A DNA stretch of 64,000 nt from an uncultured delta proteobacterium (lineage in GTDB: Bacteria; Myxococcota_A; Polyangia; Polyangiales; Polyangiaceae): contig CAVOKF010000005.1 in assembly GCA_963696385.1 (NCBI GenBank), positions 480,001 to 544,000 on the forward strand. The letters are read 5' to 3'. This document shows positions 21,826-53,890 of the stretch, piece by piece (positions within the stretch are counted from its first letter, which is position 1; each line of letters begins with the position of its first letter). The notes under the pieces are model-generated. The model was not told where the DNA came from. It saw only the letters and a list, made by a program, of their open reading frames with translations, and ran no database searches. The translations under genes were made by a program, and so were the position numbers.

Positions 21826-22518
21826 TCAGTCGCGACGACGGTCACCCACGATGCGCAAGAGGAAGAGAAACATGTTGATGAAGTCGAGATACAGCGTGAG
21901 GGCACCCACGAGCGGGAGGTTGGCGGCGGAGCCGCTTCGCTGAAACATCTCCTTCAGGCGCTGCGTGTCGTACGCGGTCAATCCCGCAAAGACGATCACG
22001 CCGGCAAACGTGATGAGCCACTCGAGCCCGCCGCTGCGCAAGAACAGGTTGACCACCGACGCGAGGATCACGCCGATCAGGGCGAAAAAACCGAAGCGGC
22101 CGACGGCACTGAGGTCGCGCTTCGTGACAGTCCCGAACGCGGACAGGGCGGCGAACGAACCCGCGGTCACGAAGAACGTCGCCGCGATCGAAGACGATGT
22201 GTAAACAAGGAAAAGCGTCGAGAAGGTGACCCCCGTCAGCGCCGCGTAGCCGAAGAACATGAGTGCTGCCACGGCGGTGCTCACGCGTGTTGCGAGCGCG
22301 CTCAGAGCGAAGACGAGCCCCAGCTGGCCGAAGAGAAGCGCGTAGAAAAGAATCCGGTTTCCGACAAAGAAACTCAGGGCGGCCGGGGAATTCGCCACGC
22401 CCAGCGCGACCAACCCCGTCAAAGCCAATCCGACCGTCATCCACCGGTACGTGACCCAGAGCGCATCGACGCTCGCGTCGCGGGAGAGGCTTGCGGATCG
22501 TTGTAGCGCGTAATCCAT
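21826..22518 (-). CDS. Bax inhibitor-1/YccA family membrane protein
   Basis: About 7 TM segments, GLTAYDTQRLK, ALTLYLDFINMF. Confidence 0.93.
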   Translation of the reverse strand: MDYALQRSASLSRDASVDALWVTYRWMTVGLALTGLVALGVANSPAALSFFVGNRILFYALLFGQLGLVFALSALATRVSTAVAALMFFGYAALTGVTFSTLFLVYTSSSIAATFFVTAGSFAALSAFGTVTKRDLSAVGRFGFFALIGVILASVVNLFLRSGGLEWLITFAGVIVFAGLTAYDTQRLKEMFQRSGSAANLPLVGALTLYLDFINMFLFLLRIVGDRRRD

Positions 22519-22565
22519 GGAGACAATGTAAGTCGCGAAGGGGGCAACGGGAAGGGGTTCAGTTT

Positions 22566-22740
22566 AGGTCGAGGTCGGCTGAGGTCGGTCGAGGTAAGGT
22601 CGAGGTAAGGTCGAGGTAAGGTCGAGGTAAGGTCGAGGTAAGGTCGAGCTGAGGTCGAGCTGAGGTCGAGCTGAGGTCGAGCTGAGGTCGAGCTGAGGTC
22701 GAGCTGAGGTCGAGCTGAGGTCGAGCTGAGGTCGAGGTCG
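22566..22740. repeat. 11-bp tandem array: 5 x GGTCGAGGTAA (22587-22641) then 8 x GGTCGAGCTGA (22642-22729), with degenerate flanking copies
   Basis: Units read and counted directly from the sequence. Confidence 0.97.
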
Positions 22741-22841
22741 GCAACTACCTGGATCGAAGCGAACTATGGATTCGTCGAACACGTGTGCGAGCGCAATGGC
22801 AACAAGGCGGCCAGCGAATGCGCCGGAGCCGAAGTCGCGCT

Positions 22842-22876
22842 TGTTACGTAATGGCAGTGCGCCTGTTACGTAATGG
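22842..22876. promoter_or_regulatory. Twin 13-bp direct repeat TGTTACGTAATGG, each copy containing the palindrome TTACGTAA; putative tandem operator
   Basis: Copies at 22842-22854 and 22864-22876 (22-bp period) in the divergent intergenic region. Confidence 0.6.
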
Positions 22877-23238
22877 TTCTGCGGTCGCCCATTGCCGTTC
22901 CGCGGATGAAAAGCGGTTGGCTCATATCGTCGAACTCCGGTTCGTCGCACGGCCGCGTGGCCGTGGAGGCGCCGAAATTCGCGACCTCGGATCGCGAATC
23001 GGGCCCGCATTCCCATGAATCGCCGATGCCTCGGCACTTCGAAGTCCGCTGTACGTACAAGGGAACCAAGCGGCCGAATGCCTTCGAGGGGCTTCGCCGA
23101 TTGTCGCGAACGATGTGGACGAGAGAGTCATACTTTGACATAAGCGGTAGGAGAACGCCATGAGGGCCCGGACATCTCTCTCAGATTGACGTCTCGACAC
23201 ACCTGCCATGACTCCAGACCAAGAAACCGAGGTTCCCA

Positions 23239-26058
23239 ATGCATTCAGAGCAAGAAGGAGAGGCAATTAGGACCCTTGACAGCTCGCGTGAGCCGTCGCG
23301 GGCCCCAGACGCGTCGAATGACGAAACGGATGTGCAGGACCTGACGGCGAGACGCTACGCCAGGGCTGGGCAGAAGTACGCCAAACTCGTCAATCCCCAG
23401 GTTACCGATCTGCTCGAACGCCTCCGTATGGACAAATGCTACGTGCGCGGCGAGGGCCATCTGCTCGTCGACGCGGAAGGCAACCATATTCTCGATGCCG
23501 TATCCGGTTACGGCGCGGTTCCCTTCGGTCACAATTGCGAGTGGGTCTGGAGCGCCGTCCGGGACTTCGAACGGTCACGCGAGCCGGCCATCGTGCAGCC
23601 GTCCGTTTTGCCTGGCGCGGGGGAGCTTGCCGAGGCCCTCATTCGCCATGCCCCACCCGGGCTTCGCCACGTCGTATTTGGAAATAGCGGAACGGAAGCC
23701 GTCGAAGCGGCCATCAAAGCCTGCCGCGTGGCCACGAGGCGACTCGGGATCATCTCGACGGAAGGTGGCTTTCACGGAAAGACCTTGGGAGCCCTCTCGG
23801 CAACCGGAAGAGATTTTTTCCAGACCGGCTCCGGGGCGCCCGTGGCGGGCTTCCGCCGCGTCCCCTACGGGGACGCGGACGCCCTCGAACAGGTGCTGCG
23901 GGAGTGCGCCGCGAGCACGGCCGCCTTCATCGTCGAGCCAATCCAAGGCGAGGGCGGCGTCATCGAGCCGCCCGCCGATTACCTCAAAGCGGTCCGCGCG
24001 CTGTGCGACAAGCACGACGTTCTGCTCATTGTGGACGAGGTTCAAACCGGGCTGGGGCGCACCGGGCCGCTCTTCGCCTGCCTTGCCGAAGGAATCATCC
24101 CCGACGCCCTGACTCTTTCCAAAGCCCTTGGCGGGGGCCTTGTGCCGGTCTCAGCGTGCCTTTTGTCGCCGAAGGCCTACACGAAAGACTTCGCCTTGAA
24201 GCACTCTTCGACCTTCGCCGGCAACGCCTTGGCGATGCGCGTGGGTCTTCGAGTCGTCGAGCGTTTGGTGTCGGATGGCGAGGCCGTGCTCGAGAACGTC
24301 GTAAGGCAGGGTGCTTACCTCAAGCGCGGCTTGCGCGAAGTGCAGCGCGAGTACGGTTCGGTCATCCGTGACGTGCGCGGTCGAGGTCTGATGCTCGGTG
24401 TCGAGCTCGGCGTCGACCGCACGAACATCCGGCGAGGTCTGGGGGCTCTCTTGCCGATGCTCGGAGAGGGCCTCGCTCCCTTCGCGGCGAGCTATTTGCT
24501 CAATGTAAGCCATCTTCGGGTCGCCCCGACGTTGCACGGGACGACTGTCCTGCGCGTGCAACCACCTCTGACCGTCACCCTCGACGAATGCGACTGGATC
24601 CTTCGAGCATTCGACGACTTAGCGTCGGTGATGGCTTCGGGCCGGTCCGACCGGTTCGTGCGGCACTTGCTGCCACCCACCGAAGCGGTCGTTCGGAGTT
24701 CGGGTTTTTATCGCGTCACCGCACCTCACGTGCCGGACGCAGAGATACCCTCCTTCACCGACCGCACGGAGCTCCTGAAGCCGAAGGGCCAACCCGAGGA
24801 AGGGCGCTTTGCCTTCGTCTTTCATATGCTCGACGGAAAGAGTCTGTCCGAGTGCGACCGGTCCCTTGAGGGGATTGCGCCGTCGGACCTCGAAAGCATC
24901 GTTGATCGGTTCGCGGACTTGACGCGCCCGTTCGTTGTCTCACGGGTCCGGATCGAGTCTCTCGCGGGCCATGCTGCCATTGGAGACTTCATTCTCCTCC
25001 CCAAGACGACCAAGCAGCTTCTGCGTCTCTCACCGGGAGAGGCACTCAACGAGGTGGCACAAGCCGTCGCCTTGGGCATCGAGGGGGGCGCCAAGATCGT
25101 TGGACTCGGCGGTTACACCTCCGTCGTCACGCAGAATCTGAAACCGCTGTTGAAGCTTGGAGTTCCACTGACGACGGGCAACAGCTACACGGTGGTCTCG
25201 GCCATCGATGCGGCTCTGCAAGCGGCGCGGGTCGCGGGCCGTGACCTCCGGATGGCCCGAGCCGTCATCGTGGGGGGCGGCGGCAGCATCGGCAGCGCTC
25301 TGGCATCTCTGCTCGCAGAGCGCGTGCCGTCGCTCGTCCTCGTGGGGCGTGAGGGTGACGCGACCGCCGTGCGCAGCCGTTATGCGATGATCGTGGCGCG
25401 AATGACCCGCCATGCAGCGCGCCGACAGGGCCACGGTGCCGTGCTCCCGAAAGGATCGCTGGGGCACTCGCTCAGCCGGCTTCCGGTTGCCGCCGAGCTC
25501 GCTCGACGCGACGGCCGGCTCGTCTTGAGCGACGACGAAGAAAGGCTCGTCCTGAACCAGGTGCGCGGTTTGAAAGTTCGCTGGACAACCGATTTGCCCG
25601 AGGCGCTGGCTCAGGCGGACTTGGTCATTCTCGCCACGAGCAGCCCCGAGCAGTTGGTCACGCCCGAGATGGTGCAACCCGGGACGGTGATCTGCGACTT
25701 GTCCCGCCCTGCCAACGTGAGCGATGCGCTCTTCCGCCGCGAAGACGTCCTGGTCATCGATGGCGGAATCGTCGAAGTCCCGCAGCGACCGGATCTTGGT
25801 TTTCACTTCGGCCTGGGTCGGGGCCTCGCGTATGCGTGCATGGCGGAGACGATGATGTTGGCCCTTGAGTCTCGTTACGAGCACACGAGCCTGGGCCGAG
25901 ATCTGCAAGAAAGCACCCTCGACATGCTCGGTGCGCTCTCCGAAAAACACGGGTTTCGATTGGCGGAGCTACGCGCCCGGCAGCGACCCCTTCGTATCTC
26001 TGAATCGAGAAAGCTGTCGCTCGCCAATCGCGGGAACCTCCGACTGGCGCGAGCCTGA
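23239..26058 (+). CDS. Class-III PLP aminotransferase fused to a C-terminal acyl-ACP/acyl-CoA reductase-like domain (TamH/PigE-like chemistry)
   Basis: N-terminal: SGTEAVEAAIK, FHGKTLG, EPIQGEGG, DEVQTG, LSKALGGG. C-terminal: FAFVFH, GLGGYTSVV, TTGNSYT, GGGGSIG, DLSRP, VIDGG, YACMAE. Confidence 0.85.
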   Translation: MHSEQEGEAIRTLDSSREPSRAPDASNDETDVQDLTARRYARAGQKYAKLVNPQVTDLLERLRMDKCYVRGEGHLLVDAEGNHILDAVSGYGAVPFGHNCEWVWSAVRDFERSREPAIVQPSVLPGAGELAEALIRHAPPGLRHVVFGNSGTEAVEAAIKACRVATRRLGIISTEGGFHGKTLGALSATGRDFFQTGSGAPVAGFRRVPYGDADALEQVLRECAASTAAFIVEPIQGEGGVIEPPADYLKAVRALCDKHDVLLIVDEVQTGLGRTGPLFACLAEGIIPDALTLSKALGGGLVPVSACLLSPKAYTKDFALKHSSTFAGNALAMRVGLRVVERLVSDGEAVLENVVRQGAYLKRGLREVQREYGSVIRDVRGRGLMLGVELGVDRTNIRRGLGALLPMLGEGLAPFAASYLLNVSHLRVAPTLHGTTVLRVQPPLTVTLDECDWILRAFDDLASVMASGRSDRFVRHLLPPTEAVVRSSGFYRVTAPHVPDAEIPSFTDRTELLKPKGQPEEGRFAFVFHMLDGKSLSECDRSLEGIAPSDLESIVDRFADLTRPFVVSRVRIESLAGHAAIGDFILLPKTTKQLLRLSPGEALNEVAQAVALGIEGGAKIVGLGGYTSVVTQNLKPLLKLGVPLTTGNSYTVVSAIDAALQAARVAGRDLRMARAVIVGGGGSIGSALASLLAERVPSLVLVGREGDATAVRSRYAMIVARMTRHAARRQGHGAVLPKGSLGHSLSRLPVAAELARRDGRLVLSDDEERLVLNQVRGLKVRWTTDLPEALAQADLVILATSSPEQLVTPEMVQPGTVICDLSRPANVSDALFRREDVLVIDGGIVEVPQRPDLGFHFGLGRGLAYACMAETMMLALESRYEHTSLGRDLQESTLDMLGALSEKHGFRLAELRARQRPLRISESRKLSLANRGNLRLARA

Positions 26059-26075
26059 CCTGGAGGATCGCGCCC

Positions 26076-27479
26076 TCACGGTTGGGGCAGGGGTGGAAAC
26101 AGGCTCGACGTCGTCACCGTCCCGGGGCGTACGATGAACGTGAGCGATCCCATGCTTTTATCGGCTCCGGACGAAAACGCGCTTGCCACGACCAGCCTGT
26201 CTGGCGCGGTCGTGGGAACGTTCAAAAACGCGCCGATTCCCGAGGCGTCCGTCGCTTTCGCGGATGTGACGGGAACGCCGCCGATGAGATAGTAACTGAC
26301 CGTTTGCGAATCGGCGGAGTCCAGGGTGAACGATACTCCGGGCGCCGGGGTAAACAGGCAGTCGGCTGCATTCAGGAGAACGTGGCCGCGCATCGGATCC
26401 GGCGAAGTGCCGGTGGCCGCGGTGATCGCCACGGCCTCCCCCTCCGAGATGAGCAGCGTTCGGCCCCGCCACCCATCCGCGACGACGAACGGTACCGGGT
26501 ACCATATCGAAGGAAACAGGACGGAGACTCCCGCGTCGCCCCCGGCGTCGCTCCCTGTGTTGGCGACTTCGCCCCCTGTCACGTCGAGATACCCGTCGAA
26601 TCCGGCTAGTCCCGGCGGAACACTGAGTGTGACCAGGCCGGTCGTATCGGTCGTCGACTGGTCAATCGGAGAGCTGCACGTATAGTCGAGCTTGTCGCAC
26701 GCTTTGACCACCGAACCGACGAACGGCTCCTCCGAGCTGAAGTCGACGAAGGTTACCGAAAATGTGATCTTGGCGGCCGCTGGAGGATTGGGCCACAGAT
26801 TGTGGCCGCTGAGACACGACCAGTTCGTGCCCGGCTGACACGCCGAGGCGCACTGACCCGTGCAGCCGTACCAGGTCGCGTAGTCCGCCAATCCATCGGC
26901 AAACTCCGCCTCGCATGCGGTGGGGCAAGAACCGGCTCCGAAGCAATTCGAGACGCAAAGATTGAGCTGCGCACACGCTGTGTCGATGGCACACGTCGCT
27001 CCTTGGGCGCAGCAAGATGTCGCGAGACACGACTCGCAGTTCGAATTGCCCGAGACGAATTCCCCGCACGAGCTCCCGCAAGAACTCGGACAATTTTGCA
27101 CTCGGCAGGCGCGTAACGCGACCAGCGTCGTCGGGAGTGTGTAAAACAAATTGCATTGCGCCATGCACGTAGCGTCGCTGCAGTTGGCGAGGCAGTCCGA
27201 CGCTTCTTCGCATGCCGGGTCCGCGGCGCAAGCTTGCGCCTGCGCGCAGCAGTGCTGGTCGATGCACGAGGCGCAGGACGCGGAAGGTTGCGGCAGCGCG
27301 CCACATGGGCCGACGGTCGACGCGACGCTGTCTTCGCCGGCATCGGCCGCTTCCGCGCGTTCCGGGCGCTCGTGAAGCCCTAGAATTTGCTGGCAACCCG
27401 CCGAGGTTGCGACAAGGACAACGACGGCAATCGGCCCGAGCGAAAAGCCGTCCCTCGAATGGCGCACGGGGCCGCTCAC
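26076..27479 (-). CDS. Cys-rich lipoprotein with a C-terminal beta-sandwich region
   Basis: Lipobox SAGCQQILGL; repeated CxxC...CC modules; start overlaps the kinase stop (GTGA). Confidence 0.75.
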   Translation of the reverse strand: MSGPVRHSRDGFSLGPIAVVVLVATSAGCQQILGLHERPERAEAADAGEDSVASTVGPCGALPQPSASCASCIDQHCCAQAQACAADPACEEASDCLANCSDATCMAQCNLFYTLPTTLVALRACRVQNCPSSCGSSCGEFVSGNSNCESCLATSCCAQGATCAIDTACAQLNLCVSNCFGAGSCPTACEAEFADGLADYATWYGCTGQCASACQPGTNWSCLSGHNLWPNPPAAAKITFSVTFVDFSSEEPFVGSVVKACDKLDYTCSSPIDQSTTDTTGLVTLSVPPGLAGFDGYLDVTGGEVANTGSDAGGDAGVSVLFPSIWYPVPFVVADGWRGRTLLISEGEAVAITAATGTSPDPMRGHVLLNAADCLFTPAPGVSFTLDSADSQTVSYYLIGGVPVTSAKATDASGIGAFLNVPTTAPDRLVVASAFSSGADKSMGSLTFIVRPGTVTTSSLFPPLPQP

Positions 27480-28855
27480 TGCTGGTAGCTTAGAGGGTCA
27501 TCGTCGCCGACCCCACGACGCGGCGCCGGCACCGCGACTCGCGGGAGAGCCGTACGTACCGGAAAAGTGTGAACTGGTTGTACATCGGCGTTCGGAGCGA
27601 CAGGGGCCGCCACTTTCGTCATCTCCGCGGCGACGGTCGAGACCGCAGGCGCCACGAACGTGGGCGGAGTCGAAGCCGTAGTGGCGAGCAGCGGTAGTGC
27701 GGATCCGGACGCAGTTGCATGGGCCGATGGCTCGGCGACCAACACGCGCGACTGCAAAGTCGGGCGCCACATGACGACAACGAGGACGAGGGACAGAGCG
27801 ACCAACGCGGCGAGCGAAAAAAACGCCGACCGCCACACGTTGGGCTCGGGGCGCGAACGGTCCTTCGTCATGGCCAAGCCCGACGATACCATGGCGTCCA
27901 ACCGGCTTGCCGACGGCAACGGGGCTCTTTCCGAAGCCGTTACGGCGATCTGCCGTGACCCGCTCGACGAAGCGATCCCAACCTCGTAGGCCGGCAGTCC
28001 GAAAGCGGCGGCAAGGGCCTCGACCTGTTGCTCCGCCGAGGAGAATCGCCGCTCGGGGTCCAGCTGGCATGCGCGAAGAAACCAACAATCGAACTCGGGG
28101 CCGAAGTCCTGCCCGATCTCGGAGGGCGCCCGGAGCGGTTCATGAAGAATCCCTTCGATCATTTCCGTCAACGTGACGCCGGTTCGATACGGTCGGCCGG
28201 TAAGCAATTTGTACGCCGTGAGTCCCAAGGCATAGAGGTCGGTGGCTGGGCCGACTCGAGTGGGATCGCCGCGGGCCTGCTCGGGCGCCATGTAGAGGGG
28301 CGTACCGAGCAGCTGCCCCCACTGCGTGGATCCTACCGACATCGATTCGGCCGCAATTCTGGCAATTCCGAAATCAAGAATCTTGATCAGCGGACTGCCA
28401 TCGTCGCGCCGGGTAAGAAATAGATTGGCTGGTTTGAGATCCCGGTGAATGATGCCTAGCCGGTGCGCCTTGTCCATGGGACCCGCGACCTGCCGCAACC
28501 ATTCGACGACGATGGGCGGCTCGATCCGTTGATCGTCCGACAGCTGGTCGAGGTCGACTCCTTCGAGCAAGTCCATGACGAGGTACGGCGCACCACTGAG
28601 TTCGGGCGCGACGTCGGCATCGAAGATCCGAACGACGTGCTGGCTCCGAATTTTCGACACGACGAGCGCTTCGCGCTTGAAGCGCGCGATCGCGTCTTCG
28701 GATCCGCCGAGATGCGACGTCATCACCTTGAGCGCGAGAAGCTCGCCGGTCAGCGTGTGTTCGACGGAGTAAACGGTCCCGGTCGAACCTGCCCCAAGGA
28801 CGCTCCGGGGTCGATATTTGCCCCCGATGATCTCCGGCAAGCTCACGCCGCGCAT
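27476..28855 (-). CDS. Membrane-anchored Hanks-type Ser/Thr protein kinase
   Basis: LGAGSTGTVY, ALK, HRDLKPANLF, DFG, GTPLYMAPE, DLYALG; one TM then a Pro/Ala-rich tail; start uncertain (28855 or 28927). Confidence 0.93.
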   Translation of the reverse strand: MRGVSLPEIIGGKYRPRSVLGAGSTGTVYSVEHTLTGELLALKVMTSHLGGSEDAIARFKREALVVSKIRSQHVVRIFDADVAPELSGAPYLVMDLLEGVDLDQLSDDQRIEPPIVVEWLRQVAGPMDKAHRLGIIHRDLKPANLFLTRRDDGSPLIKILDFGIARIAAESMSVGSTQWGQLLGTPLYMAPEQARGDPTRVGPATDLYALGLTAYKLLTGRPYRTGVTLTEMIEGILHEPLRAPSEIGQDFGPEFDCWFLRACQLDPERRFSSAEQQVEALAAAFGLPAYEVGIASSSGSRQIAVTASERAPLPSASRLDAMVSSGLAMTKDRSRPEPNVWRSAFFSLAALVALSLVLVVVMWRPTLQSRVLVAEPSAHATASGSALPLLATTASTPPTFVAPAVSTVAAEMTKVAAPVAPNADVQPVHTFPVRTALPRVAVPAPRRGVGDDDPLSYQQ

Positions 28856-28927
28856 GGTAAATAGCTCTCCGGCCTTGTCAATGATGAGCCGCACGATGCG
28901 GCGCAACTGCGAACTTGAGAAACGCAC

Positions 28928-30040: not shown

Positions 30041-30788
30041 GCCTCCGCGCGCCCGCCCTTCTGGGCCTGGCGAGAGGCGTCGGAGTCCGCCCGTGGCCCT
30101 CGCCTATGGGGCAAAACGAGGCGGACATCGGCCTGCGATGAGCCTCGCGACGAATCGAAGCATTCAATAACGTAGTTCGCAAATCGTATGCATACGACGC
30201 CGCGCCGTCCGATCTCGGGCCAAGGAAAGCCCCCGTCTCGTTCGAAGGCGTATCAGAGGATGGAATCGGGCCACGAAATCGTCGCACTTCCTTTAGCTTT
30301 AGTGAGTGCGGCACGAACTCGACGTCGGCGTTCACCGCGAAGCCCCGGCCCGTTCGAGGCACGGGGCTAGCCGACTCCGAAGGGCAGATCACACTTAATT
30401 CCGTTGGAGCGAGAAGGGCCGATGTCGGCATATCCGCCCGCCTGTCGGCCGCCTCCGGACCCGGCTCAGCGCCGCCTCGCTAAGGGTGCCCATGAAGGAC
30501 GCCTGCCTCCACTGAAATTCCCACAAAATTCCGAACGGAAAGAAGCCGAGCGCGCGATGTCGATGTGGGCCACGCAGTTGCGACGCAAATTTCCTATGCA
30601 AACGAAAGTTTCGAAGTTCCGCATGGTTTCAGTCACTTTCCGTGAGCCATTTTTTCGTGGTTTGCCACTGCCGTAACGAACGAAGCGAAACGAGCAAAAC
30701 AGCCGAACGCCCCGGGGGGACCACACCCCCTCCGTTGCGGGCCGGCGCTTGCTGGTGCAAAGTGGATCGACCGCGCGGAGGCGTCACA

Positions 30789-32648
30789 ATGAGGAAACTT
30801 ACCGCTGTACACACGACAGGGCTGGCTGTCTGCACCCTAATAGCGGCCGCCTGCACCGGCGTCATCGGCAACCCGCCTGGGCAGAACGGGTCCGCGGGCC
30901 CCGGGGGCACCAGCGCCGCCGGGGGCGGCCCGAACAACGATACGACGGGGGCAACGTCTGGTTCGGGCACTCCGTCCGCTTCGGGCGTCAGCGGTAGCGC
31001 GACCGCAACCAGCGAAGACGGGGCCGCCGGCACGCCGACGATCGTCGACACGCTCTTCGGCTCGACGGCCAGCGACACGACCGCCGCGGGGACGATGGTG
31101 CTCCGGCACCTCGAGCAGTTCGAATACATCAATACCGTCACATCTCTATTCGGAGCCGCGGCCGTTGCATCCGCGGGCATCAACACGACGAACGTCCCGG
31201 CTGAGCCGCCGGTGCCGAACACGTCGAGCGGCTTCCCGCTGCCGGGGCTCGTCGACGTGACGACGGCCACCGCCTACCAGGCCGACGCCGAAGCACTCGC
31301 CACCGCCGTGCTTCCCAACGTTTCGACGCTTCTCAGCTGCACCCCCGGAACGGGGGCCGCCGACGCGAGCACCAGCGACCTGGCCTGTGCCAACACGTTC
31401 ATCACGACGTTCGGTCAACAGATGTACCGGCGCCCGCTGAACGCGACCGAAATATCCGGACTGGTGGGCCTCTACCAGACCGGCGTTTCGACGCTCGGCC
31501 TCGACTTCAACGGCGCGATCGACTTGCTGATCGAAGAGATGCTCCAATCGCCAGGCTTCCTGTACCACTGGGAAGTCGGCCCCGGAGCAACGGTCTACTC
31601 CGGCACCGAAGTGCAGCTCGACGGCTATGCGTTGGCCAATCGCCTGTCGTACTTCCTCTGGGGCAGCATGCCGGATGCCACGCTCTTCGCCGCGGCGGCT
31701 GCTGGCCAACTTTCGACTCAGGCCCAAGTGACAGCCCAGGCCACGCGGATGTTGGCGTCGACACAGGCGCGCTCAGCCGTGGCGAACTTCTTCGAACAGT
31801 GGCTGGGGATGACCCAATTGGCCGCCCAGCCGAAGGACGCCACCACCTACCCGAGCTGGAACACGACGCTCGCATCCGAGATGGACACGGAATTCCAGAA
31901 TTTCATTACGTCCGTCATCTTCGACCGCACGGGCGAGCTCAATGAGCTCTACACGAGCTCGACCACGTCCATCGACGGGGACCTCGCGACCCTCTACGGC
32001 GCAACGGGAGTGAGCGGCACCACGTTCCAGTCGACGACGTTGCCTGCGGCGCAGCGCTCGGGGCTGCTCACCACGGCCGCTTGGCTCACGCTGAACGGCG
32101 ACCCGGCCGGGTCGAATCCGGTGTACCGAGGTCACTCGCTCTACACCCAAATGCTGTGTGGGATCATTCCGGCGCCACCGCCCAACGTGCCGCCTCCCGC
32201 AGCCGCCTCCGCGGGCGGAACGACGCGCCAGCGCTTCCAGATGCACGATCAGCAGGCGTGCGCGGTCGGGTGCCACAGCCTGATGGACCCCTACGGGTAT
32301 ACGTTTGAGAATTACGATGGCCTCGGCGAATGGCGGACGACGGACAACGGTCTTCCGGTCGATGCATCGATCGCGATCGCGCTGGACGGAAAGAGCGTCA
32401 CCGTCGCCAATGCCGTCGCGATGACCCCGCTTTTGGCCCAGAGCCCCACCGCCCAAGAGTGCTTTACGGCTCAGTGGCTCACCTACGGCTTGGGCCGAAC
32501 CGTTACGAGCGACGATGCCGCGTCGGCCCAAGCGGCCCAAACCGCATTCGAGAGCGCCAATTTCAAAGTAACCACCCTGTTGTCGAGCCTGGCAAGCTCA
32601 CGCACGTTCCGCTACCGGACCCCGTCTGCGGGAGAGGTGCTCCAATGA
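30789..32648 (+). CDS. DUF1587/1595/1592/1588/1585-family (PSD/PSCyt) lipoprotein
   Basis: Lipobox AAACTG; LRHLEQFEYINTV, LQSPGFLY, LANRLSYFLWGSMPD, RSGLLT, NPVYRG, TTRQR, CAVGCH, FENYDGLGEWR. Confidence 0.9.
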   Translation: MRKLTAVHTTGLAVCTLIAAACTGVIGNPPGQNGSAGPGGTSAAGGGPNNDTTGATSGSGTPSASGVSGSATATSEDGAAGTPTIVDTLFGSTASDTTAAGTMVLRHLEQFEYINTVTSLFGAAAVASAGINTTNVPAEPPVPNTSSGFPLPGLVDVTTATAYQADAEALATAVLPNVSTLLSCTPGTGAADASTSDLACANTFITTFGQQMYRRPLNATEISGLVGLYQTGVSTLGLDFNGAIDLLIEEMLQSPGFLYHWEVGPGATVYSGTEVQLDGYALANRLSYFLWGSMPDATLFAAAAAGQLSTQAQVTAQATRMLASTQARSAVANFFEQWLGMTQLAAQPKDATTYPSWNTTLASEMDTEFQNFITSVIFDRTGELNELYTSSTTSIDGDLATLYGATGVSGTTFQSTTLPAAQRSGLLTTAAWLTLNGDPAGSNPVYRGHSLYTQMLCGIIPAPPPNVPPPAAASAGGTTRQRFQMHDQQACAVGCHSLMDPYGYTFENYDGLGEWRTTDNGLPVDASIAIALDGKSVTVANAVAMTPLLAQSPTAQECFTAQWLTYGLGRTVTSDDAASAQAAQTAFESANFKVTTLLSSLASSRTFRYRTPSAGEVLQ

Positions 32649-33949
32649 TTTTGAAAGAGAAATATTCGAGGCGAGCCCTCCTCAAGGCCATTGGCGGAGG
32701 CGCGGCTCTACTGCCCATCTTGAACAACGAGGCATTTGCTGCCGACGGCGGTCCCGATGCTGGCTTGACGAGCGGCGGCTTCCCGAAGCGGCTCATCACC
32801 GTCACCTGGACGAACGGCATTTACGGCTGCAGCAAGTGGAGCAACACGACGCAGGCGCTCACCGCGGCGAACCTCCCGGCCATTATGTCGCCTCTGTCAC
32901 CGTACGTGGCGAAGATGATTCTCCCTCGCGGGGTCAATCTCCAGGCCGAGTTCGACGTAAACCAGTACGGCGGGCACTTTGGCTATCCGTGCATCCTGAC
33001 AGGCACCCAAAACGGCTCCTCTCCATCGATCGACTCGCTCATCTCCACCCAATTGACGTCTCAGGGCGTGGTGAAGCCGCAGCTCAACCTCGGGTGTCTT
33101 CCGGAGGGCAGCTACACGAGCTGGAGCACGACCGGCCACAATACCCAAATCACCAATCCTTATACGCTATTCAACCAGCTCTTCCCGAACGCGACGATGT
33201 CGACGAGCCAGCTGTCGGCGATCTCGCAGCGGAGAGCGAGTGTCCTGGACCTCGTCTCCACCCAGCTGACGGCATTTCAAAACATCATCGGTACCGACGA
33301 CAAGGTGAAGATTCAGAGTCACCTCAACTCGGTCCGTCAGCTGGAAATGGATCTGCAGGCGGCCGTTGCGACGTGTACCCCGCCGACGCTGACCCCTCAG
33401 GGCCTGTCGTTCAGTGGCATTACGAACTACACGAGTCAGGTCAACTTCATGATGCGTCTCGCAGCCGCCGCGGTGACCTGCGGCATCTCGCGGGCCGTTA
33501 CGCTGGACCTCATCAACGACGGGGGCGGTGACATCTTGACCTTCCCATGGCTAACCCCGCCGATCAACAGCCCGGACTACCATGCGATCGCGCACCAAGG
33601 CGCCGCCGGTGCGACCAACAAAACCGCGATCGACACGTGGTGGTATACGCAGGTTGCAACGCTGCTGGCCGCACTCGACTCCTCGACCGAAGGGTCATCG
33701 ACGGCGCTCGACAACAGTCTCGTCTTCCTCTGCAACGACATGCGTGAAGGCAACGACCATTACTCTGCCCAAATCGCCTTCGTCATGATTGGCAGCTTGG
33801 GTGGCTACTTCAACACCGGGCAGTGGGTCGCGCTCGCCGATACCCCGAATAACAAGCTGTTGACGACGATTTGCCACGGGATGGGGCTGCAAGTGGCGGG
33901 TGTCGGCGAGAGCAAGTACACGGGAGATGTCGACTCGTCGCTGACGTGA
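32645..33949 (+). CDS. DUF1552 domain protein, Tat-exported
   Basis: YSRRALLK signal, PSIDS, DKVKIQSHLNSVRQLE, YHAIAHQ, ALDNS, GNDH; ATGA overlap with the upstream gene. Confidence 0.85.
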   Translation: MILKEKYSRRALLKAIGGGAALLPILNNEAFAADGGPDAGLTSGGFPKRLITVTWTNGIYGCSKWSNTTQALTAANLPAIMSPLSPYVAKMILPRGVNLQAEFDVNQYGGHFGYPCILTGTQNGSSPSIDSLISTQLTSQGVVKPQLNLGCLPEGSYTSWSTTGHNTQITNPYTLFNQLFPNATMSTSQLSAISQRRASVLDLVSTQLTAFQNIIGTDDKVKIQSHLNSVRQLEMDLQAAVATCTPPTLTPQGLSFSGITNYTSQVNFMMRLAAAAVTCGISRAVTLDLINDGGGDILTFPWLTPPINSPDYHAIAHQGAAGATNKTAIDTWWYTQVATLLAALDSSTEGSSTALDNSLVFLCNDMREGNDHYSAQIAFVMIGSLGGYFNTGQWVALADTPNNKLLTTICHGMGLQVAGVGESKYTGDVDSSLT

Positions 33950-44632: not shown

Positions 44633-46048
44633 TCATAACCTGTAGGCGCGTTTCGCGAGGTTGTAGGCGAGATCCACTGCGAGCTCGGCCGCTTCGTCTT
44701 CGTCGAGACGATGCTCGGTGACCCACTTGGCCAGGATGGCGCAATCGACGCGCCGAGCGACGTCGTGGCGCGCGGGGATCGACAGGAAGGCGCGGGTGTC
44801 GTCGTTGAAGCCGACCGTGTTGTAGAAGCCCGCCGTCTCGGTCACGCGCTCCCGGTAGGTGCGGATTCCCTCCGGGCTGTCGAAAAACCACCAGGCAGGA
44901 CCGAGCTTGAGAGCGGGATAATGGCCCGCAAGCGGAGCGAGCTCGCGTGAGTACGCCGACTCGTCGAGAGTGAAGACGATGAGCGACAGGCGCTTGTCGT
45001 TTCCGAACCGATCGAGCAGGGGCTTGAGGGCGCGGACGTAGTCGGTCGCTGTCGGAATGTCCGCTCCCTTGTCTCTTCCGAATTTGTGGAGGATGTCGCG
45101 GTTGTGATTGCGGAACGATCCAGGGTGAATTTGCATGACGAGGCCGTCGTCGAGGCTCATTCGCGCCATCTCGGTCAACATCTGGCCGCGGAAGCATTCG
45201 GCTTCGCTCGGCGATACTGCCGATGCGAGCGCCTTGCCGAACAAGGCCTCGCACTCGGATCGCGAAAGATCGCACGTGAAGGCCGAAGGGTGACCGTGAT
45301 CGGTGGAGGTGGCGCCGTGCGAGGCGAAAAAGTGCCGTCGGGTCGAAAGCGCCCGCAAATACCCTTGCCACGATCCGGTATTTTCGCCAGTGATCGCGCC
45401 GAGCGCTTCCACGCCGCGCGCGAATCCCTCGAACTCGGGATCCACCACCGGGTCCGGCCGAAACGCGGTGATGACGCGACCGTTCCAGCCGGACCGGCGC
45501 AACGCGGCGTGATGGGCCAGGTCGTCGAGGGGCGATTCGGTCGTGGCGAGCACCTCGATGTTGAATCGTTCGAAGAGTGCGCGCGGGAGAAACTGGGGCC
45601 GCGGAAGGCAATCGGCGATCCGATCGTAAATCCGGTCCGCCGATTCCGGCGTGAGCCGCTCGTCGATGCCGAATACGTCGCGCAGCGCATGAGTGAGCCA
45701 CAGGCGCGATGGAGTGCCGCGAAACAGGTAAAAATGGTCCGCTAGCAACCGCCAGATTCTTCTCGAGTCTCGCTCCACGGGCTCGCCGTCCACGCGCGCG
45801 ATGCCGAGCGCCTCGAGGGGTACGCCCTGGCTGTAGAGCATCCGAAACACGTAGTGGTCGGGGACGACGAGCAACGTCGCCGGATCCACAAAAGGCCGGT
45901 TGTCGGCAAACCATGCCGGATCGCAGTGTCCGTGCGGGCTGAGGATCGGAAGCTGCCGCGAAAGGCCGTACAGGCGGCGCGCGACGTCGCGGGTCGGCGG
46001 ATCCGCCGGAAACAGTCGATCGTCGGAGAGCACCGAGGTCGTGGACAC
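44633..46048 (-). CDS. uxaC: Uronate (glucuronate) isomerase
   Basis: LPILSPHGH, PDHYVFRMLYSQG, TDHGH, MQIHPGS, GPAWWFFDS, GFNDDTRAF, ARHDVARR; GTG start at 46048 inferred. Confidence 0.95.
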   Translation of the reverse strand: MSTTSVLSDDRLFPADPPTRDVARRLYGLSRQLPILSPHGHCDPAWFADNRPFVDPATLLVVPDHYVFRMLYSQGVPLEALGIARVDGEPVERDSRRIWRLLADHFYLFRGTPSRLWLTHALRDVFGIDERLTPESADRIYDRIADCLPRPQFLPRALFERFNIEVLATTESPLDDLAHHAALRRSGWNGRVITAFRPDPVVDPEFEGFARGVEALGAITGENTGSWQGYLRALSTRRHFFASHGATSTDHGHPSAFTCDLSRSECEALFGKALASAVSPSEAECFRGQMLTEMARMSLDDGLVMQIHPGSFRNHNRDILHKFGRDKGADIPTATDYVRALKPLLDRFGNDKRLSLIVFTLDESAYSRELAPLAGHYPALKLGPAWWFFDSPEGIRTYRERVTETAGFYNTVGFNDDTRAFLSIPARHDVARRVDCAILAKWVTEHRLDEDEAAELAVDLAYNLAKRAYRL

Positions 46049-46053
46049 CGAGT

Positions 46054-46830
46054 CTAGCGCGCGGCTCGCGCGTACGCCCGCGCCGGTTGCAGGCGCGCCG
46101 GCCGCTCCGAGCAGAGCCCCTCGTCCGTCGCCTCCTTGATCGATTCCCAACCCCGGCTGAACTCGCGATGCACGCGCTTCAAGTGTCGGTGCATGGCGCT
46201 TCGGGCGGCGCGCGCATGGCGCTCCTCGATCGCCTGCAGGATGTCTTCATGGTCGCCCAGCATGTCGGCAAGCAACCGAGGCGTCTGAAAGTGGTGCTCC
46301 ATCCTCTTCCAGATCGTGCCGCGCCCTCGATCCCAAGCGTCTTGAACCACCGTGCCGAGCACGCTGTTGTGTGCGGCGCGAGCGACCGCGACGTGGAACT
46401 CGCGGTCGCTCTCGTCGGCGTTCCGACCGTGCGCGTGGCGGCGCCGCATCTCGCTCACCGCGGCACGGATCGCATCGACGTCTTGGGCGCGCGCGTGACG
46501 GGCCGCTTCCGCGGCAATCTCGCCTTCGATGAGGGCACGAGCGCGCAGCAGCTCGAAGGGGCCTTGTCCTTCGGAGGCGAGGTCGGTGGCGGGAACCGAC
46601 TGACTGGCCACGAAGATCCCGGATCCCACACGAACCTCCACCTTGCCGGCGACTTCGAGGGCAATCAGAGCTTCACGCACCGACGGACGGGAGACCCCGA
46701 GCTGGGCGGAAAGCTCGCGTTCGGAGGGCAGTCGCTCACCCTCCGCAAGCTCGCCGGACGCAATCAGTCTCGAGACTTGATCGGCTATTTGACGATAAAG
46801 ACGTTGGTTTTCGATGGTTTGCAGCGGCAT
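46054..46830 (-). CDS. GntR/FadR-family transcriptional regulator (UxuR/ExuR-like), copy 1
   Basis: Same motifs as 43587..44360; long shared stretches such as [30 protein letters not shown] and [12 protein letters not shown]. Confidence 0.92.
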   Translation of the reverse strand: MPLQTIENQRLYRQIADQVSRLIASGELAEGERLPSERELSAQLGVSRPSVREALIALEVAGKVEVRVGSGIFVASQSVPATDLASEGQGPFELLRARALIEGEIAAEAARHARAQDVDAIRAAVSEMRRRHAHGRNADESDREFHVAVARAAHNSVLGTVVQDAWDRGRGTIWKRMEHHFQTPRLLADMLGDHEDILQAIEERHARAARSAMHRHLKRVHREFSRGWESIKEATDEGLCSERPARLQPARAYARAAR

Positions 46831-46942
46831 GTCCCACATGCTTCCCGAGTGAGAAAGTCCGACGCTGTCGGTGGACGACGTCGCGCCGCGAAGTCCCTAT
46901 CCTCGTCGGTCTGAGTTGGACACATTCGTCAAAGTCAGTGTA

Positions 46943-46984
46943 AAGCTACCGGCCATTGGTCTGAATATCAAGTGGCCTGACCAT
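46943..46984 (-). promoter_or_regulatory. Sigma70-like promoter TTGATA-17-TAGCTT overlapped by FadR-type operator box ATTGGTCTGAATATCAAGTGGCCTGACCAT
   Basis: -35 at 46971-46966 and -10 at 46948-46943 on the minus strand; box 46955-46984 matches 51787-51816 at 27/30. Confidence 0.75.
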
Positions 46985-47114
46985 GGAGTTTTGCGATGGC
47001 ACGGTGCGGCAAGGCGGCGGACGGGCGTGAGACGAGGTGCGGGCAGGCCAGCCGTTCTCGCAGCCCCTCGACGCGGGTCCGGCTCGGTCGGCAAGCCGCG
47101 TGCGGAGTCGGTTC

Positions 47115-47891
47115 GTGACCGCGTCGGGCCTCGATTTGGGCGGTCAGGTCGCCGTCGTTCTTGGCGGGACCGGTGGCATCGGACGGGCGCTTGCGGTGGG
47201 GCTCGCGCAGGCGGGCGCCGATGTCGTCCCGACCGGGCGTCGGATCGATCACATCGATCGGACCGCAGCGGAGATCGAACAGGTCGGACGCCGTTCGCTG
47301 CGCATCGCGGCGGACGTGACCGACCGCGGGTCTCTCGAGCGCCTACTTGCGGCGACGGTGGGATCGCTCGGGAAAGTGGACATCCTCGTCAATTGCGCGG
47401 GCAAAATCAAGCGCTCGCCGACTCTGGATCTCGCCGAGTCGGACTGGAACGACATCCTCGAGACGAACCTCACGGGCACGTTGCGCGGATGCCAGATTTT
47501 CGGCAAGCACATGATCGATCGCGGGTACGGCCGGATCGTGAATGTGGCCTCGCTCACTTCGTTCGTCGCCCTCTACGAGGTCGCGGCGTACGGGGCCAGC
47601 AAGGCTGGGGTCGTGGCGCTCACCCGGTCGCTCGCCGTCGAATGGGGATCGAAAGGGGTCTGCGTGAACGCGGTCGCACCCGGAATCTTCCCTACCGATC
47701 TGAACGAAGAACTCTTGAACGGCACCGCGCGAGGGCGCGAGCTTCTCATGCGGACACCCCTCAAGCGATTCGGTCGGGTCGAAGAGGTCGTGGGAGCCGT
47801 GGTCTTTCTCGCGTCGCGGAGCGCAAGCTTCGTCAATGGGCAGGTCCTTGCGATCGACGGGGGCTTTCTCGCGAGCGGCGTCAACCAGTAG
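47115..47891 (+). CDS. SDR oxidoreductase (KduD/gluconate-5-dehydrogenase/fructuronate-reductase-like)
   Basis: GGTGGIG, LVNCAG, YGASKAG, VNAVAPG, IDGG; GGAG before GTG 47115. Confidence 0.88.
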   Translation: MTASGLDLGGQVAVVLGGTGGIGRALAVGLAQAGADVVPTGRRIDHIDRTAAEIEQVGRRSLRIAADVTDRGSLERLLAATVGSLGKVDILVNCAGKIKRSPTLDLAESDWNDILETNLTGTLRGCQIFGKHMIDRGYGRIVNVASLTSFVALYEVAAYGASKAGVVALTRSLAVEWGSKGVCVNAVAPGIFPTDLNEELLNGTARGRELLMRTPLKRFGRVEEVVGAVVFLASRSASFVNGQVLAIDGGFLASGVNQ

Positions 47892-47923
47892 TCCCCCGGC
47901 TGCTGGCGGCGGCAGAGAACGAC

Positions 47924-49189
47924 TCAATCGCCACCGAAAAGCGGGTCGATGTGTCGCTGCAGGTTTCGGGTGACGCACGGGGCGACGGTTTCTCGTCCGT
48001 CACGAAGCGCGGCCCGGAATTCCTCTCCCAGCTCCGCGGCGATCTTGAATGCGACATGCATCAGCTGGCGCACGTGAATGCTGAAGTCGGCGCAAGAAGG
48101 GTCGTGTCGAATGTGGTTGGCCAGTCGCTCCGCGCCAAACGTCGATACCTCGGATGGCGCCGGGAGCTTCGCCCGGTCGATCGCCACCACGGTCGCATAC
48201 GGAGCGCACAGCTCGTCGTAGCGCGCGAACGCAGCCGCATAGATCCGCTTGGCGAGGTCGAGGCCGGCCGGCCCCGATAGCGTCACTCCGACGACCTCCT
48301 CCAGCCACGTCGTCCCCGCAGTCTTCAGGTGCAATCCCTGATCGGACTTTCGCAGAGCCGCGCGCATGATCGGGTAAAGGGAAAACTTGTCGCTGCCCGT
48401 GTGGACGCTCAGCTTGAGCGACGGCGGAAAGCCGAAGACGTCGATCGCATGGCGAACCACGGCCAGGTCGGCCTCGAATTCGCGCGCGAAAATGCGCGTG
48501 TCGCCGACGTAGTCGATCCCCTTGAGGAACTTTCCCGAAAACTTGGGCGCGACGGTCTGCGCGGGGATGCGCTCGCGGGCGAGCGCTCCGAGCACGAAAA
48601 ACAGCTCCAGCGGCGACTGGGACTCCGAGGCCTCGTCGATGGACACCTCCGTGACGAACGGGTCCGCGCCCTTGGCGGCTTCGATCCGACGGTATGTCCG
48701 ACCGGCCTCCGCCGCGGCGCACACGTAGCGGCGGCCGATTTCCCGAAGAATGGGTTCGGTCACCTCGAAGGCCGCATCGACGCCCGGGATGCGCAACGTG
48801 CCGCGAAATGGTTTCATGTCCCGGACGAACGACTCGATGGCGCGCTCGTCTGCCGATTGGCCGATGAAGTCCGCGACATCGAGCGTGAAAAAGTTGCTCG
48901 ACGCAATGAACCGATCGACCGTCTTCACCCCGATGTGATCGGCATCGACGTAGTACGCGTACTGCCAGCCGGTGGCGCGCACCGCATTGTCGGCGGCGGC
49001 GCGTACGTCCTCCGGTCGGGTCCCGATGAGCGAGTGTTCGCGGTTCGACTTGTTCCACACGGGCACGATCAGGACACCGCGCTCTTCGGCTTTCCGAATG
49101 GCATCCAGTTGAGCGACGCCCTCCACGCCGAAGCGATCCCCGATGCCCAGCGAGTACTTTTCGATGATCATGGCGCTTGGTCTAGGCAT
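47924..49189 (-). CDS. uxaE: Tagaturonate/fructuronate epimerase family protein
   Basis: YSLGIGDRFG, DADH, FTLDV, EVSIDE, APKF, KGIDYVGD, KLSVHTGSDKFS, HLKTAGTTWLE. Confidence 0.88.
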   Translation of the reverse strand: MPRPSAMIIEKYSLGIGDRFGVEGVAQLDAIRKAEERGVLIVPVWNKSNREHSLIGTRPEDVRAAADNAVRATGWQYAYYVDADHIGVKTVDRFIASSNFFTLDVADFIGQSADERAIESFVRDMKPFRGTLRIPGVDAAFEVTEPILREIGRRYVCAAAEAGRTYRRIEAAKGADPFVTEVSIDEASESQSPLELFFVLGALARERIPAQTVAPKFSGKFLKGIDYVGDTRIFAREFEADLAVVRHAIDVFGFPPSLKLSVHTGSDKFSLYPIMRAALRKSDQGLHLKTAGTTWLEEVVGVTLSGPAGLDLAKRIYAAAFARYDELCAPYATVVAIDRAKLPAPSEVSTFGAERLANHIRHDPSCADFSIHVRQLMHVAFKIAAELGEEFRAALRDGRETVAPCVTRNLQRHIDPLFGGD

Positions 49190-49193
49190 GCGG

Positions 49194-50276
49194 TCAGCGC
49201 TGAATTCTCGCCGACCCTCCTCGAGCGAAGGCTCGGACCTGATCGATAGTCGCCATCGTCGTGTCCCCTGGAAACGTCGTCAGAAGGGCGCCGTGCGACC
49301 AACCAAGCCTCACGGCGTCCTCCGGGGTTTCGCCCGTGAGCAGACCGTAGAACAGACCGGCCGCGAAACCGTCGCCCCCGCCGACTCGATCGAACACCTC
49401 GATCTCGCAGGTGGGCGCGCTGACTTGCCGTCCTGCGATCCACGCGACGGCGCTCCATCCGTGGCGGTTGGCGGAGCGGACCTCGCGCAACGTCGTCGCC
49501 ACGGCTTTGATATTGGGGTGCTTCGCGATCACCCGTTCGATCATGCGAAAGAAGGCATCCGCTTGCAGACCGGACCGGTCGCTCACGTTGGGACCCGGGA
49601 CGCCGAGCCCGCGCTGCAGATCCTCTTCGTTGCCCACGAGGACGTCGACATGATCCGCGATCCGGCCGATGACCTCCGCCGCCTTGTTCGCCCCGCCCCA
49701 GACATTCCACAGCTTCTCGCGAAAGTTCAGGTCGAAGCTCACGATGGCGCCCGCCGCCTTGGCGGCCTTCATTCCCTCGAGAATCAGTTCTCCGGTCGTC
49801 TCGGAGAGAGAAGCAAAAATCCCTCCGCTGTGAAACCACCGCAACCCGCCGGCAAATATCCGATTCCAATCGAAATCGCCGGGCTTGAGCCGCGCCGCGG
49901 CCTCGTTCGCGCGGTTGTAGAAGACCACCGGGGGACGCAGACCGAAGCCGCGGTCGCTGTAGACGGTGGCCATGTTGGGCCCACGCACCCCATCGTGCGC
50001 GAAGTCCTTGGTGAAGGCGCGAACGCCCATGGCGCGGACGCGGTCCGCGATGAGGTTGCCGATGGGATAGTCCACCATCGCCGTCGCGATCGCTGTGTTC
50101 ATCCGAAAGCAGTCGGCCAGATTGGCCGTGACGTTGAACTCGCCGCCGCTCACGTGAACGTCGAAGTGCGTGGCTTTGCGAAACGGAACGATGCCCGGGT
50201 CCAGGCGGTGGACCAGTGCCCCGAGGCTCACGAAATCGAGACCCCCGCTTGGGGGGACGATCCATTCGGTACTCAT
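49194..50276 (-). CDS. PfkB-family sugar-acid kinase (KdgK-like)
   Basis: GGEFNV, SFDLNFREKLW, GNEED, DRVGGGDGF; start overlaps the larA-like stop (ATGA). Confidence 0.88.
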   Translation of the reverse strand: MSTEWIVPPSGGLDFVSLGALVHRLDPGIVPFRKATHFDVHVSGGEFNVTANLADCFRMNTAIATAMVDYPIGNLIADRVRAMGVRAFTKDFAHDGVRGPNMATVYSDRGFGLRPPVVFYNRANEAAARLKPGDFDWNRIFAGGLRWFHSGGIFASLSETTGELILEGMKAAKAAGAIVSFDLNFREKLWNVWGGANKAAEVIGRIADHVDVLVGNEEDLQRGLGVPGPNVSDRSGLQADAFFRMIERVIAKHPNIKAVATTLREVRSANRHGWSAVAWIAGRQVSAPTCEIEVFDRVGGGDGFAAGLFYGLLTGETPEDAVRLGWSHGALLTTFPGDTTMATIDQVRAFARGGSARIQR

Positions 50277-51580: not shown

Positions 51581-51775
51581 GGATCGAGCTGCGCCCGCCC
51601 CATCTCCCGCGGCATCGGGGTCCCGGATTTCGAGCCATCGACCCGCCGCGGATCGTTCGCGGTGGTGCGTGCCGCACCCGCGTTCGCCAGTGCCGGGTCG
51701 CGGCCCACGACGAGCCGCTTCACGCGCCGGCCCCCCTCGGGGGGGCATGTCCCGTCCGCATCGGTGGTAAGGCGG

Positions 51776-52023: not shown

Positions 52024-53890
<1,867 letters not shown>

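Follow-up and report, generated by a model that had tools for sequence, protein, structure and literature searches.

A TamH-like transaminase-thioester reductase fusion encoded outside recognisable biosynthetic clusters in a member of the Polyangiaceae

Introduction

How does an enzyme that appears to be built for converting acyl thioesters to primary amines obtain its substrate when its gene lies apart from a recognisable pathway? This question is raised by a 64,000-nucleotide (nt) stretch of the genome of an uncultured delta proteobacterium of the Polyangiaceae (GenBank assembly GCA_963696385.1, contig CAVOKF010000005.1, positions 480,001 to 544,000; the whole stretch is called the window here). 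One open reading frame (ORF) within it encodes a class-III aminotransferase followed by a domain that resembles the cyanobacterial acyl carrier protein (ACP)-dependent acyl-ACP reductase (AAR). An earlier note, made from the sequence without database searches, had described the gene as an orphan fusion and a candidate one-enzyme fatty-amine synthase that may draw on primary acyl-ACP or acyl-CoA. Our analysis revealed an intact relative of the already published TamH-like enzymes. We consider it probable that its acyl donor is supplied in trans by a dedicated system of a fatty-acyl-AMP ligase (FAAL) and an ACP, and not by bulk fatty-acid synthesis.

Results

The ORF at positions 23239-26058 of the plus strand is open over 939 codons and encodes a protein of 939 amino acids (aa; P0001). 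A motif search of the translation placed both this ORF and every motif named in the earlier note where the note had put them. The start ATG and the first codons and residues are kept in the closest ortholog (locus L001, 84% protein identity), and the 520 nt upstream of the gene are 86% identical between the window and that locus. Both domains reside in one polypeptide, the transaminase (TA) preceding the thioester reductase (TR), and the length of 939 aa fits the range of approximately 870 to 960 aa of TamH-type fusions. The best NCBIfam match of the whole protein was PigE (NF053554, 526.7 bits) in four stretches that span both halves; this score is below the curated equivalog cut-off of 850 bits, and relative to the profile the two halves are transposed. 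The host genome (6.94 Mb in 8 contigs, 66% GC) contains a single TR copy. Collectively, these data established a real and intact gene for a TA joined to an AAR-type TR, with the following features, all on the plus strand.

23239..26058, plus strand: whole gene (P0001), TamH-like transaminase-thioester reductase fusion (ORF, translation, NCBIfam)
23434..24615, plus strand: class-III (omega) aminotransferase domain, residues 66-459 (Pfam Aminotran_3, E 5.4e-87)
24121..24123, plus strand: codon of Lys295, predicted Schiff-base lysine for pyridoxal phosphate (PLP) within LSKALGGG (motif position and alignment)
24616..24795, plus strand: interdomain linker, residues ~460-519 (bounded by the Pfam TA envelope and GRFAF, the first conserved TR motif)
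24796..26013, plus strand: AAR-fold thioester reductase domain, residues ~520-925 (profiles, phmmer against PDB, alignment, AlphaFold2, Foldseek)
25273..25293, plus strand: glycine-rich dinucleotide-binding loop GGGGSIG, residues 679-685 (motif position and alignment)
25357..25578, plus strand: helical insertion of ~70 residues in the Rossmann lobe, residues ~707-780 (alignment A1 columns 215-285, model)
25837..25839, plus strand: codon of Cys867, predicted acyl-accepting catalytic cysteine within YACMAE (alignment)

The N-terminal half is an intact class-III aminotransferase, as the earlier note had claimed. Among solved chains, its TA domain is nearest to the TA domain of PigE (4ppm, E 4e-80) and to the putrescine aminotransferase of E. 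coli (E 2e-74). The motif DEVQTG begins at residue 266 and LSKALGGG at residue 293, and the motif of Lys295, the lysine that the note had placed at about 24121, aligns with LSKSLSGG of PigE and LAKALGGG of the putrescine aminotransferase.

For the C-terminal half, residues 503-939 served as the query (P0002). Its conserved motifs are FAFVFH at residue 524 (nt 24808), GLGGYTS at 622, TTGN at 645, GGGGSIG at 679, DLSRP at 820 and YACMAE at 865. This half scored 160 bits against the N-terminal part of the PigE profile and 83.1 bits against the profile AcACP_reductase (TIGR04058, cut-off 449.7 bits), both values being under the curated equivalog cut-offs. In a phmmer search of the PDB, it matched PigE (4ppm, E 1e-23) and cyanobacterial AAR (6jzq, E 2e-14). 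Furthermore, we aligned 48 TR domains drawn from the 65 fetched loci that carry a TR (alignment A1). Cys867 aligns to Cys294 of AAR (FACFAE) and to GCMAE of PigE, and the segment ACMAETMM that contains it is invariant in all 48 domains, as are F..F..H and the second Thr, the Gly and the Asn of TTGN. The glycine-rich loop aligns to GATGDIG of AAR, with G177, G180, I182 and G183 (numbered within the C-terminal half) invariant in the 48 sequences.

An AlphaFold2 model of this half, built on alignment A1, reached a mean pLDDT of 90.1, with low values on the linker side where the query begins. The best Foldseek matches of the model were AAR (6jzy, E 5.6e-20, TM-score 0.79 on target) and then the terminal amidation domain (TAD) of carmabin biosynthesis. 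Shikimate, malic, glutamate and other dehydrogenases scored far below AAR, with TM-scores of at most 0.39, and the Pfam match to Shikimate_DH was confined to a 61-residue Rossmann stretch (33.8 bits). The AAR-like half with a positioned cysteine at about 25837 that the earlier note had proposed is thus borne out by profile, PDB and fold matches, the best of which are to AAR or PigE and lie well outside what chance would give, and the better fit to shikimate or amino-acid dehydrogenases that the note had weighed against it was not seen. In the comparison with TamH, PigE and AAR that the note had suggested, PigE and AAR were matched by both profiles and solved chains, and TamH was likened by its published layout only.

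One part of the reductase departs from its templates. The insertion of approximately 70 residues in the Rossmann lobe was modelled as confident helices and is a feature of the majority of fused forms. L014, L031 and L040 have it shortened or not at all, and stand-alone TR proteins, AAR and PigE lack it. To our knowledge, this insertion has no earlier description.

The TamH-like TA-TR design is an already published enzyme type, and the window gene is a relative of it rather than a new type, because PtTamH of Pseudoalteromonas tunicata, with matching domain order and size, has been characterised (PMC9594044). Literature searches on the fusion retrieved no paper on a myxobacterial member; the supplementary homolog lists of PMC9594044 and PMC10829540 may include Myxococcota.

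The family to which the gene belongs is large. A whole-protein search returned 1,293 of 8,000 scored candidates at E ≤ 1e-3. The best 120 of these 1,293 comprised about 35 proteins at 58-84% identity, from Polyangiaceae and Myxococcota metagenomes, the rest being 44-49% identical and originating from Bacillota, Stigmatella, Archangium and others. When the TR half was searched against 1.84 billion cluster representatives, 2,671 matches were found at E ≤ 1e-3 and 489 at E ≤ 1e-30, ranging in length from about 350 aa to more than 3,000 aa. We fetched 79 loci from species genomes; 43 carry TA plus TR and 21 carry TR alone, one is cut by a contig end, and 14 are aminotransferase-only matches.

The neighbourhoods and domain composition of the relatives, which the earlier note had proposed to survey, bear directly on the acyl donor, as FAAL and ACP proved to be fusion partners or cluster neighbours of relatives. 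We scanned the domains of 10 long or typical representatives that are 38-44% identical over the TR. Three have the order FAAL-(PP-binding)-TA-TR, one is PP-binding-TA-TR, and one is a synthetase of 2,624 aa that ends in ACP-TA-TR; in four, TA-TR is followed by an AMP-binding domain (one of them is N-terminally cut), and one is a plain TA-TR. Taken as "Rosetta stone" fusions, the FAAL/ACP forms indicate that an adenylating enzyme normally loads a carrier, from which the acyl group passes to the reductase. As a separate observation, the proteins P0128, P0131 and P0133 (~1,400 aa) combine TA-TR with AMP-binding and AMP-binding_C domains and have no PP-binding domain, a layout that hints at a possible ACP-independent route from an acyl-adenylate or CoA to the reductase cysteine.

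The same association appears as gene clusters. In another genome of the family (G071; contig C1, ~5,421,400-5,441,700; L116, L117), a FAAL-ACP didomain protein (725 aa), a 381-aa protein without assigned function, a TA-TR (1,020 aa) and an acyl-CoA dehydrogenase (ACAD, 591 aa) are encoded together. The TR of this protein is 33% identical to that of the window, and its gene is preceded by the FAAL-ACP didomain gene and directly followed by the ACAD gene. Downstream lie genes for an 892-aa acyltransferase, a LolA-like protein, two MacB-type permeases and an ATP-binding cassette (ABC) ATPase, with an IS66 transposase nearby. This gene set follows the logic of TamA, TamH and TamT in the tambjamine pathway. 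Clusters of Pseudomonas and Chromobacterium (L037, L058, L060, L066) hold a FAAL, a 94-aa ORF in the position of the ACP (not domain-scanned), a fatty-acid desaturase and a TA-TR, together with a GNAT-like protein, an ABC/MacB exporter, a LolA-like protein and an ACAD. The G071 cluster resembles these and suggests an exported lipid derived from a fatty amine as the putative product.

When the partner genes of the Pseudomonas clusters were sought in the host genome, only generic FAAL, ketosynthase (KS), ABC and ACAD matches were obtained, none of them near the window. Those on host contig C8 (~46,000-53,000; L108:8812-14880) fell where a FAAL, a ketosynthase, a class I/II aminotransferase resembling alpha-oxoamine synthases and an ACP stand together, a cluster that we take to be possibly of the bacterial sphingolipid type.

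On host contig C7, the minus strand at ~1,024,350-1,030,140 (L110:7217-13137) carries one operon of a FAAL (731 aa), an ACAD (559 aa), an ACP (91 aa) and a second ACAD (610 aa). The FAAL is 38% identical to the FAAL part of a fused FAAL-ACP-TA-TR protein (P0136), the ACP is the best PP-binding match in the host genome, and the C7 ACAD is 40% identical to the ACAD that adjoins the TA-TR gene of G071. Among the genes scanned beside the operon, no thioesterase, reductase or other off-loading enzyme was found. The C7-type ACAD is rare, being present in 5 of the 151 genomes sampled from the same GTDB family, compared with 3 of 151 for TA-TR, and both occur in two genomes, the host (G000) and G071. 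The nearest genome with a TA-TR (G523) has a C7-type ACAD at 88% identity, and in the two same-genus genomes that lack TA-TR the C7-type ACAD was also not found.

At E ≤ 1e-20, the TR half was detected in the same 3 of 151 family genomes, the host included, with TR identities of 30-33% in the other two, and in neither of the two other genomes of the same genus. At least 11 of 401 genomes sampled from the phylum contain it (best four candidates scored per genome). Close orthologs (62-84% identity) are confined to five species genomes among the 79 loci. TA-TR is therefore a sporadic accessory gene and not a core gene, a distribution more in keeping with specialised metabolism than with a core lipid pathway.

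A quick IQ-TREE phylogeny of 52 TR domains, in which 17 stand-alone TR proteins served as the root, united the six Polyangiaceae sequences in one clade (SH-aLRT 100). This clade joined a Pseudomonas/Chromobacterium clade weakly (SH-aLRT 83, with possible long-branch attraction), and a Bacillota/Chloroflexota clade was separate from both. In several Bacillota loci (L030:9322-9885, L045, L054, L008, L021), a helix-turn-helix (HTH) protein of ~190 aa (cluster c1, 28 loci) is encoded directly upstream of TA-TR and stand-alone TR genes, amid housekeeping surroundings (pyk, ffh, lysS, dus, coaX, proS). We found no FapR-like or other informative family match for this protein beyond HTH, and no counterpart of it adjoins the window gene.

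The genes that flank TA-TR in the window are the following.

Upstream, divergent: Bax1-I and Lon
Further upstream: PutA-like enzyme, DEAD helicase, glucose-6-phosphate dehydrogenase, K+ channel and outer-membrane beta-barrel protein
26076-27479, minus strand (downstream, convergent): Cys-rich predicted lipoprotein without a family match
27476-28927, minus strand (downstream, convergent): Ser/Thr kinase
Further downstream: TPR protein, then DUF1592/DUF1552-type genes

The Cys-rich lipoprotein and kinase genes overlap by 4 bp. The lipoprotein gene adjoins TA-TR in all six Polyangiaceae loci; its family is expanded in the Polyangiaceae, with up to 8 matches per genome in 67 of the 151 family genomes, most of which lack TA-TR, and because of this multi-copy distribution we rejected the lipoprotein as a specific partner. 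At 30642-33949, a DUF1552 (HXXSHH) ORF comes after, and overlaps, the one for a DUF1592/DUF1588/DUF1595/DUF1585 protein. Such DUF1592/DUF1552 pairs are typical of Planctomycetes and Myxococcota, and both families are also encoded just upstream of TA-TR in L005. In a synteny comparison with a genome of the same genus (G060), Lon alone was matched, and no insertion boundaries could be defined.

Between Bax1-I and TA-TR, positions 22587-22736 hold a tandem array of the 11-bp unit GGTCGAGCTGA (13.6 copies, 98% matches). Variant units, GGTCGAGGTAA, precede the array from ~22565, and runs of such units were found nowhere else in the genome. At 22842-22876, some 370 bp before the TA-TR gene begins, TGTTACGTAATGG occurs twice, with the copies 22 bp apart. 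The whole 6.9-Mb genome has only 7 occurrences of the palindrome TTACGTAA; L001 retains one copy at the matching place. These elements may be an operator. A scan of 22400-26300 revealed no Rfam RNA family, and promoter and terminator counts in the same region were not above those of shuffled sequences.

Discussion

The gene encodes intact domains with conserved catalytic motifs and the correct fold, and its family context is established. By homology, the substrate class (an aliphatic acyl chain), the reaction direction, the cofactor and the acyl donor can be proposed as follows. In the C-terminal AAR-fold domain, Cys867 would take over the acyl group of a phosphopantetheine thioester, hydride from NAD(P)H would reduce the acyl-enzyme, and the aldehyde would be released. 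The N-terminal PLP domain, through Lys295, would then transaminate the aldehyde to the primary amine, probably with glutamate or alanine as the donor.

We think that such a TamH-type bifunctional enzyme is probably served in trans by a dedicated FAAL/ACP system. The gene is single-copy, sporadic and without an adjoining carrier or ligase, and therefore the acyl donor is most likely to come from elsewhere in the genome; a dedicated carrier is favoured because relatives fuse the module to FAAL and ACP and because FAAL-ACP, TA-TR and ACAD are clustered in G071.

Several observations weigh against this interpretation. The orphan setting that the earlier note had pointed out stands: the scan of flanking ORFs and the genome-wide PP-binding scan found no ACP, ligase, polyketide synthase (PKS) or pyrrole genes adjacent to TA-TR. 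No carrier, ligase, PKS or tailoring genes were detected within ~10 kb, and none of the 10 PP-binding matches in the host genome lies near the window. With respect to the C7 operon, five genomes have close TA-TR orthologs, and four of them (G524-G527) yielded no ACAD match at E ≤ 1e-60 (the completeness of these genomes is not established); G001, G128 and G143 have the C7-type ACAD without a TA-TR match. Moreover, once the host itself is set aside, the overlap of TA-TR and ACAD amounts to one genome, and related genomes are not independent.

We regard the C7 operon as a lead of low probability to the in-trans partner and not as a finding. A fuller version, in which the orphan TA-TR would be the missing off-loading enzyme of the unlinked C7 operon, is speculative and likewise improbable. 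The two would then constitute the separated parts of a Tam-like module, and its product, independent of any pyrrole pathway, would be a desaturated long-chain primary amine, either a free signal or the head of an undescribed amino-lipid in soil and peat Polyangiaceae. Such a module may parallel the FAAL-ACP/TA-TR/ACAD/LolA-MacB clusters of G071, Pseudomonas and Chromobacterium.

The earlier note had instead favoured an enzyme that works alone on housekeeping acyl-ACP (or acyl-CoA), in the manner of AAR, and releases free long-chain primary amines that would serve a lipid or signal not yet described. PtTamH did not accept C12-CoA and needed its dedicated, cognate ACP (PMC9594044), and this report, together with the FAAL and ACP fused to or clustered with relatives, makes such independence unlikely. 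It would agree with the empty surroundings of the gene, with the use of acyl-ACP from fatty-acid synthase (FAS) by the structural template, cyanobacterial AAR, and with the many Bacillota members that lie among housekeeping genes. However, a core lipid function would be expected to occur more widely than in 3 of 151 family genomes and in neither of the two other same-genus genomes.

Chemically, either half-reaction can run backwards. The TA could in principle deaminate an alkylamine or polyamine-type amine to an aldehyde, and the cysteine domain would oxidise this aldehyde to a CoA- or ACP-bound acyl thioester that enters beta-oxidation. Among characterised stand-alone relatives of the TA, the closest one, the putrescine aminotransferase, is catabolic, and the family is common in fatty-acid-degrading anaerobes. 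We nevertheless judge this direction very unlikely, as TamH, PigE and KecF, all the characterised or proposed members, run biosynthetically, the fusions to FAAL-ACP loading domains imply a thioester-to-amine direction, and no amine-uptake or beta-oxidation genes were found adjacent.

The least likely of the readings, a polyketide-like, beta-keto or amino-acyl/peptidyl thioester as substrate (cf. KecF, PigE and the carmabin TAD) and a cyclising amino-ketone or alkaloid precursor as product, draws on the keto-acyl or polyketide thioesters used by PigE and KecF, on the second-best fold match to a terminal domain of a nonribosomal peptide synthetase (NRPS) and on acyl-pocket residues reported as variable across the family (PMC9594044), but no PKS or NRPS genes were found nearby and the nearest clustered relatives carry FAAL, desaturase and ACADs, which is fatty-acid logic.

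The conversion of an activated acid via an aldehyde to a primary amine is established chemistry that is already exploited for biocatalysis, and the window copy therefore adds no new principle. The interest of the gene lies elsewhere, in that the TR family is large and modular and many of its members, the window gene included, lie outside recognisable biosynthetic clusters. We know of no natural product or lipid assigned to such members. Should the Polyangiaceae enzyme produce a fatty amine in vivo, this would suggest bacterial amino-lipids or signals of a class so far unrecognised, and fatty-amine production would gain a soil-myxobacterial enzyme.

Comparison with known systems

Among the known systems, the TAD of carmabin and vatiamide biosynthesis (PDB 9e4s-9e56) represents the AAR fold as an NRPS terminal domain (bioRxiv 10.1101/2024.10.28.620694). 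It shares with the C-terminal half an AAR-like fold and an invariant cysteine placed beside the nicotinamide of NAD and accessible to a carrier-bound substrate. In contrast to the window protein, the TAD stands at the end of an NRPS module, is 14-17% identical, is proposed to act in amidation and not in aldehyde release, and has no transaminase. Cyanobacterial AAR (6jzy, 6jzq; TIGR04058) resembles the C-terminal half in its two-lobe fold (TM-score 0.79-0.80 on target), the position of the cysteine and the dinucleotide loop, at an identity of 20-22%. Unlike the window protein, AAR is a stand-alone enzyme of ~340 aa that has an aldehyde-deformylating oxygenase as its partner, lacks the insertion and is not fused to a transaminase.

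PigE of the Serratia prodigiosin pathway, from its 2-methyl-3-n-amylpyrrole (MAP) branch, contains both domains in reversed order (PMC8341465). Both are homologous to those of the window protein, at the E values given above, and the cysteine motifs GCMAE and ACMAE are aligned; the differences are the N-terminal position of the reductase, the lack of the ~70-aa insertion and another pathway context.

The architecture of an N-terminal TA and a C-terminal COG5322 (AAR) domain is shared with KecF of the koreenceine pathway, for which a TamH-like role was proposed (PMC6498172), and with the fusion PP_2782 (PpKTFusion) of P. putida. The latter was expressed along with three Bacillota fusions of the same architecture (two from Thermaerobacter and one from Thermincola), and TA activity was measured (PMC10829540). 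In vitro, their TA domains preferred aliphatic aldehydes and used Glu, Gln or Ala as donors, and the cysteine and glycine loop of these proteins were mapped onto AAR (PMC10829540). KecF and PP_2782 reside in type II FAS/PKS clusters, unlike the window gene: a scan of 16 flanking ORFs revealed none of the ketosynthase, ACP or reductase genes of a kec-type cluster.

In domain order and size, the window protein matches PtTamH of the tambjamine YP1 pathway. TamH lies in the tam cluster with TamA (FAAL-ACP) and TamT, whereas the window gene has no such neighbours; TamA, TamT and bipyrrole genes were not found alongside it, and Lon, Bax1-I, the Cys-rich lipoprotein, the Ser/Thr kinase and the TPR protein are encoded there instead. 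The identity of TamH to other fusions was published as 28-32% (PMC10829540). PtTamH has 941 aa, compared with 939 aa in the window protein, and is divided into a TA (M1-K500), a linker of ~50 aa and a TR (K547-S941) (PMC9594044), the same order of class-III TA, linker and AAR-type TR. In the published layout, its residues Lys340 and Cys887 take the places of Lys295 and Cys867, and a GxxGxxG loop, G707xxG710xxG713 in PtTamH, is present in both proteins (PMC9594044). Together with TamA, ATP, NADH and L-Glu, PtTamH converted a C12 acid via C12-ACP (TamA) to the aldehyde and on to the C12 amine (PMC9594044). The path from thioester to aldehyde to amine is presumably shared by the window protein.

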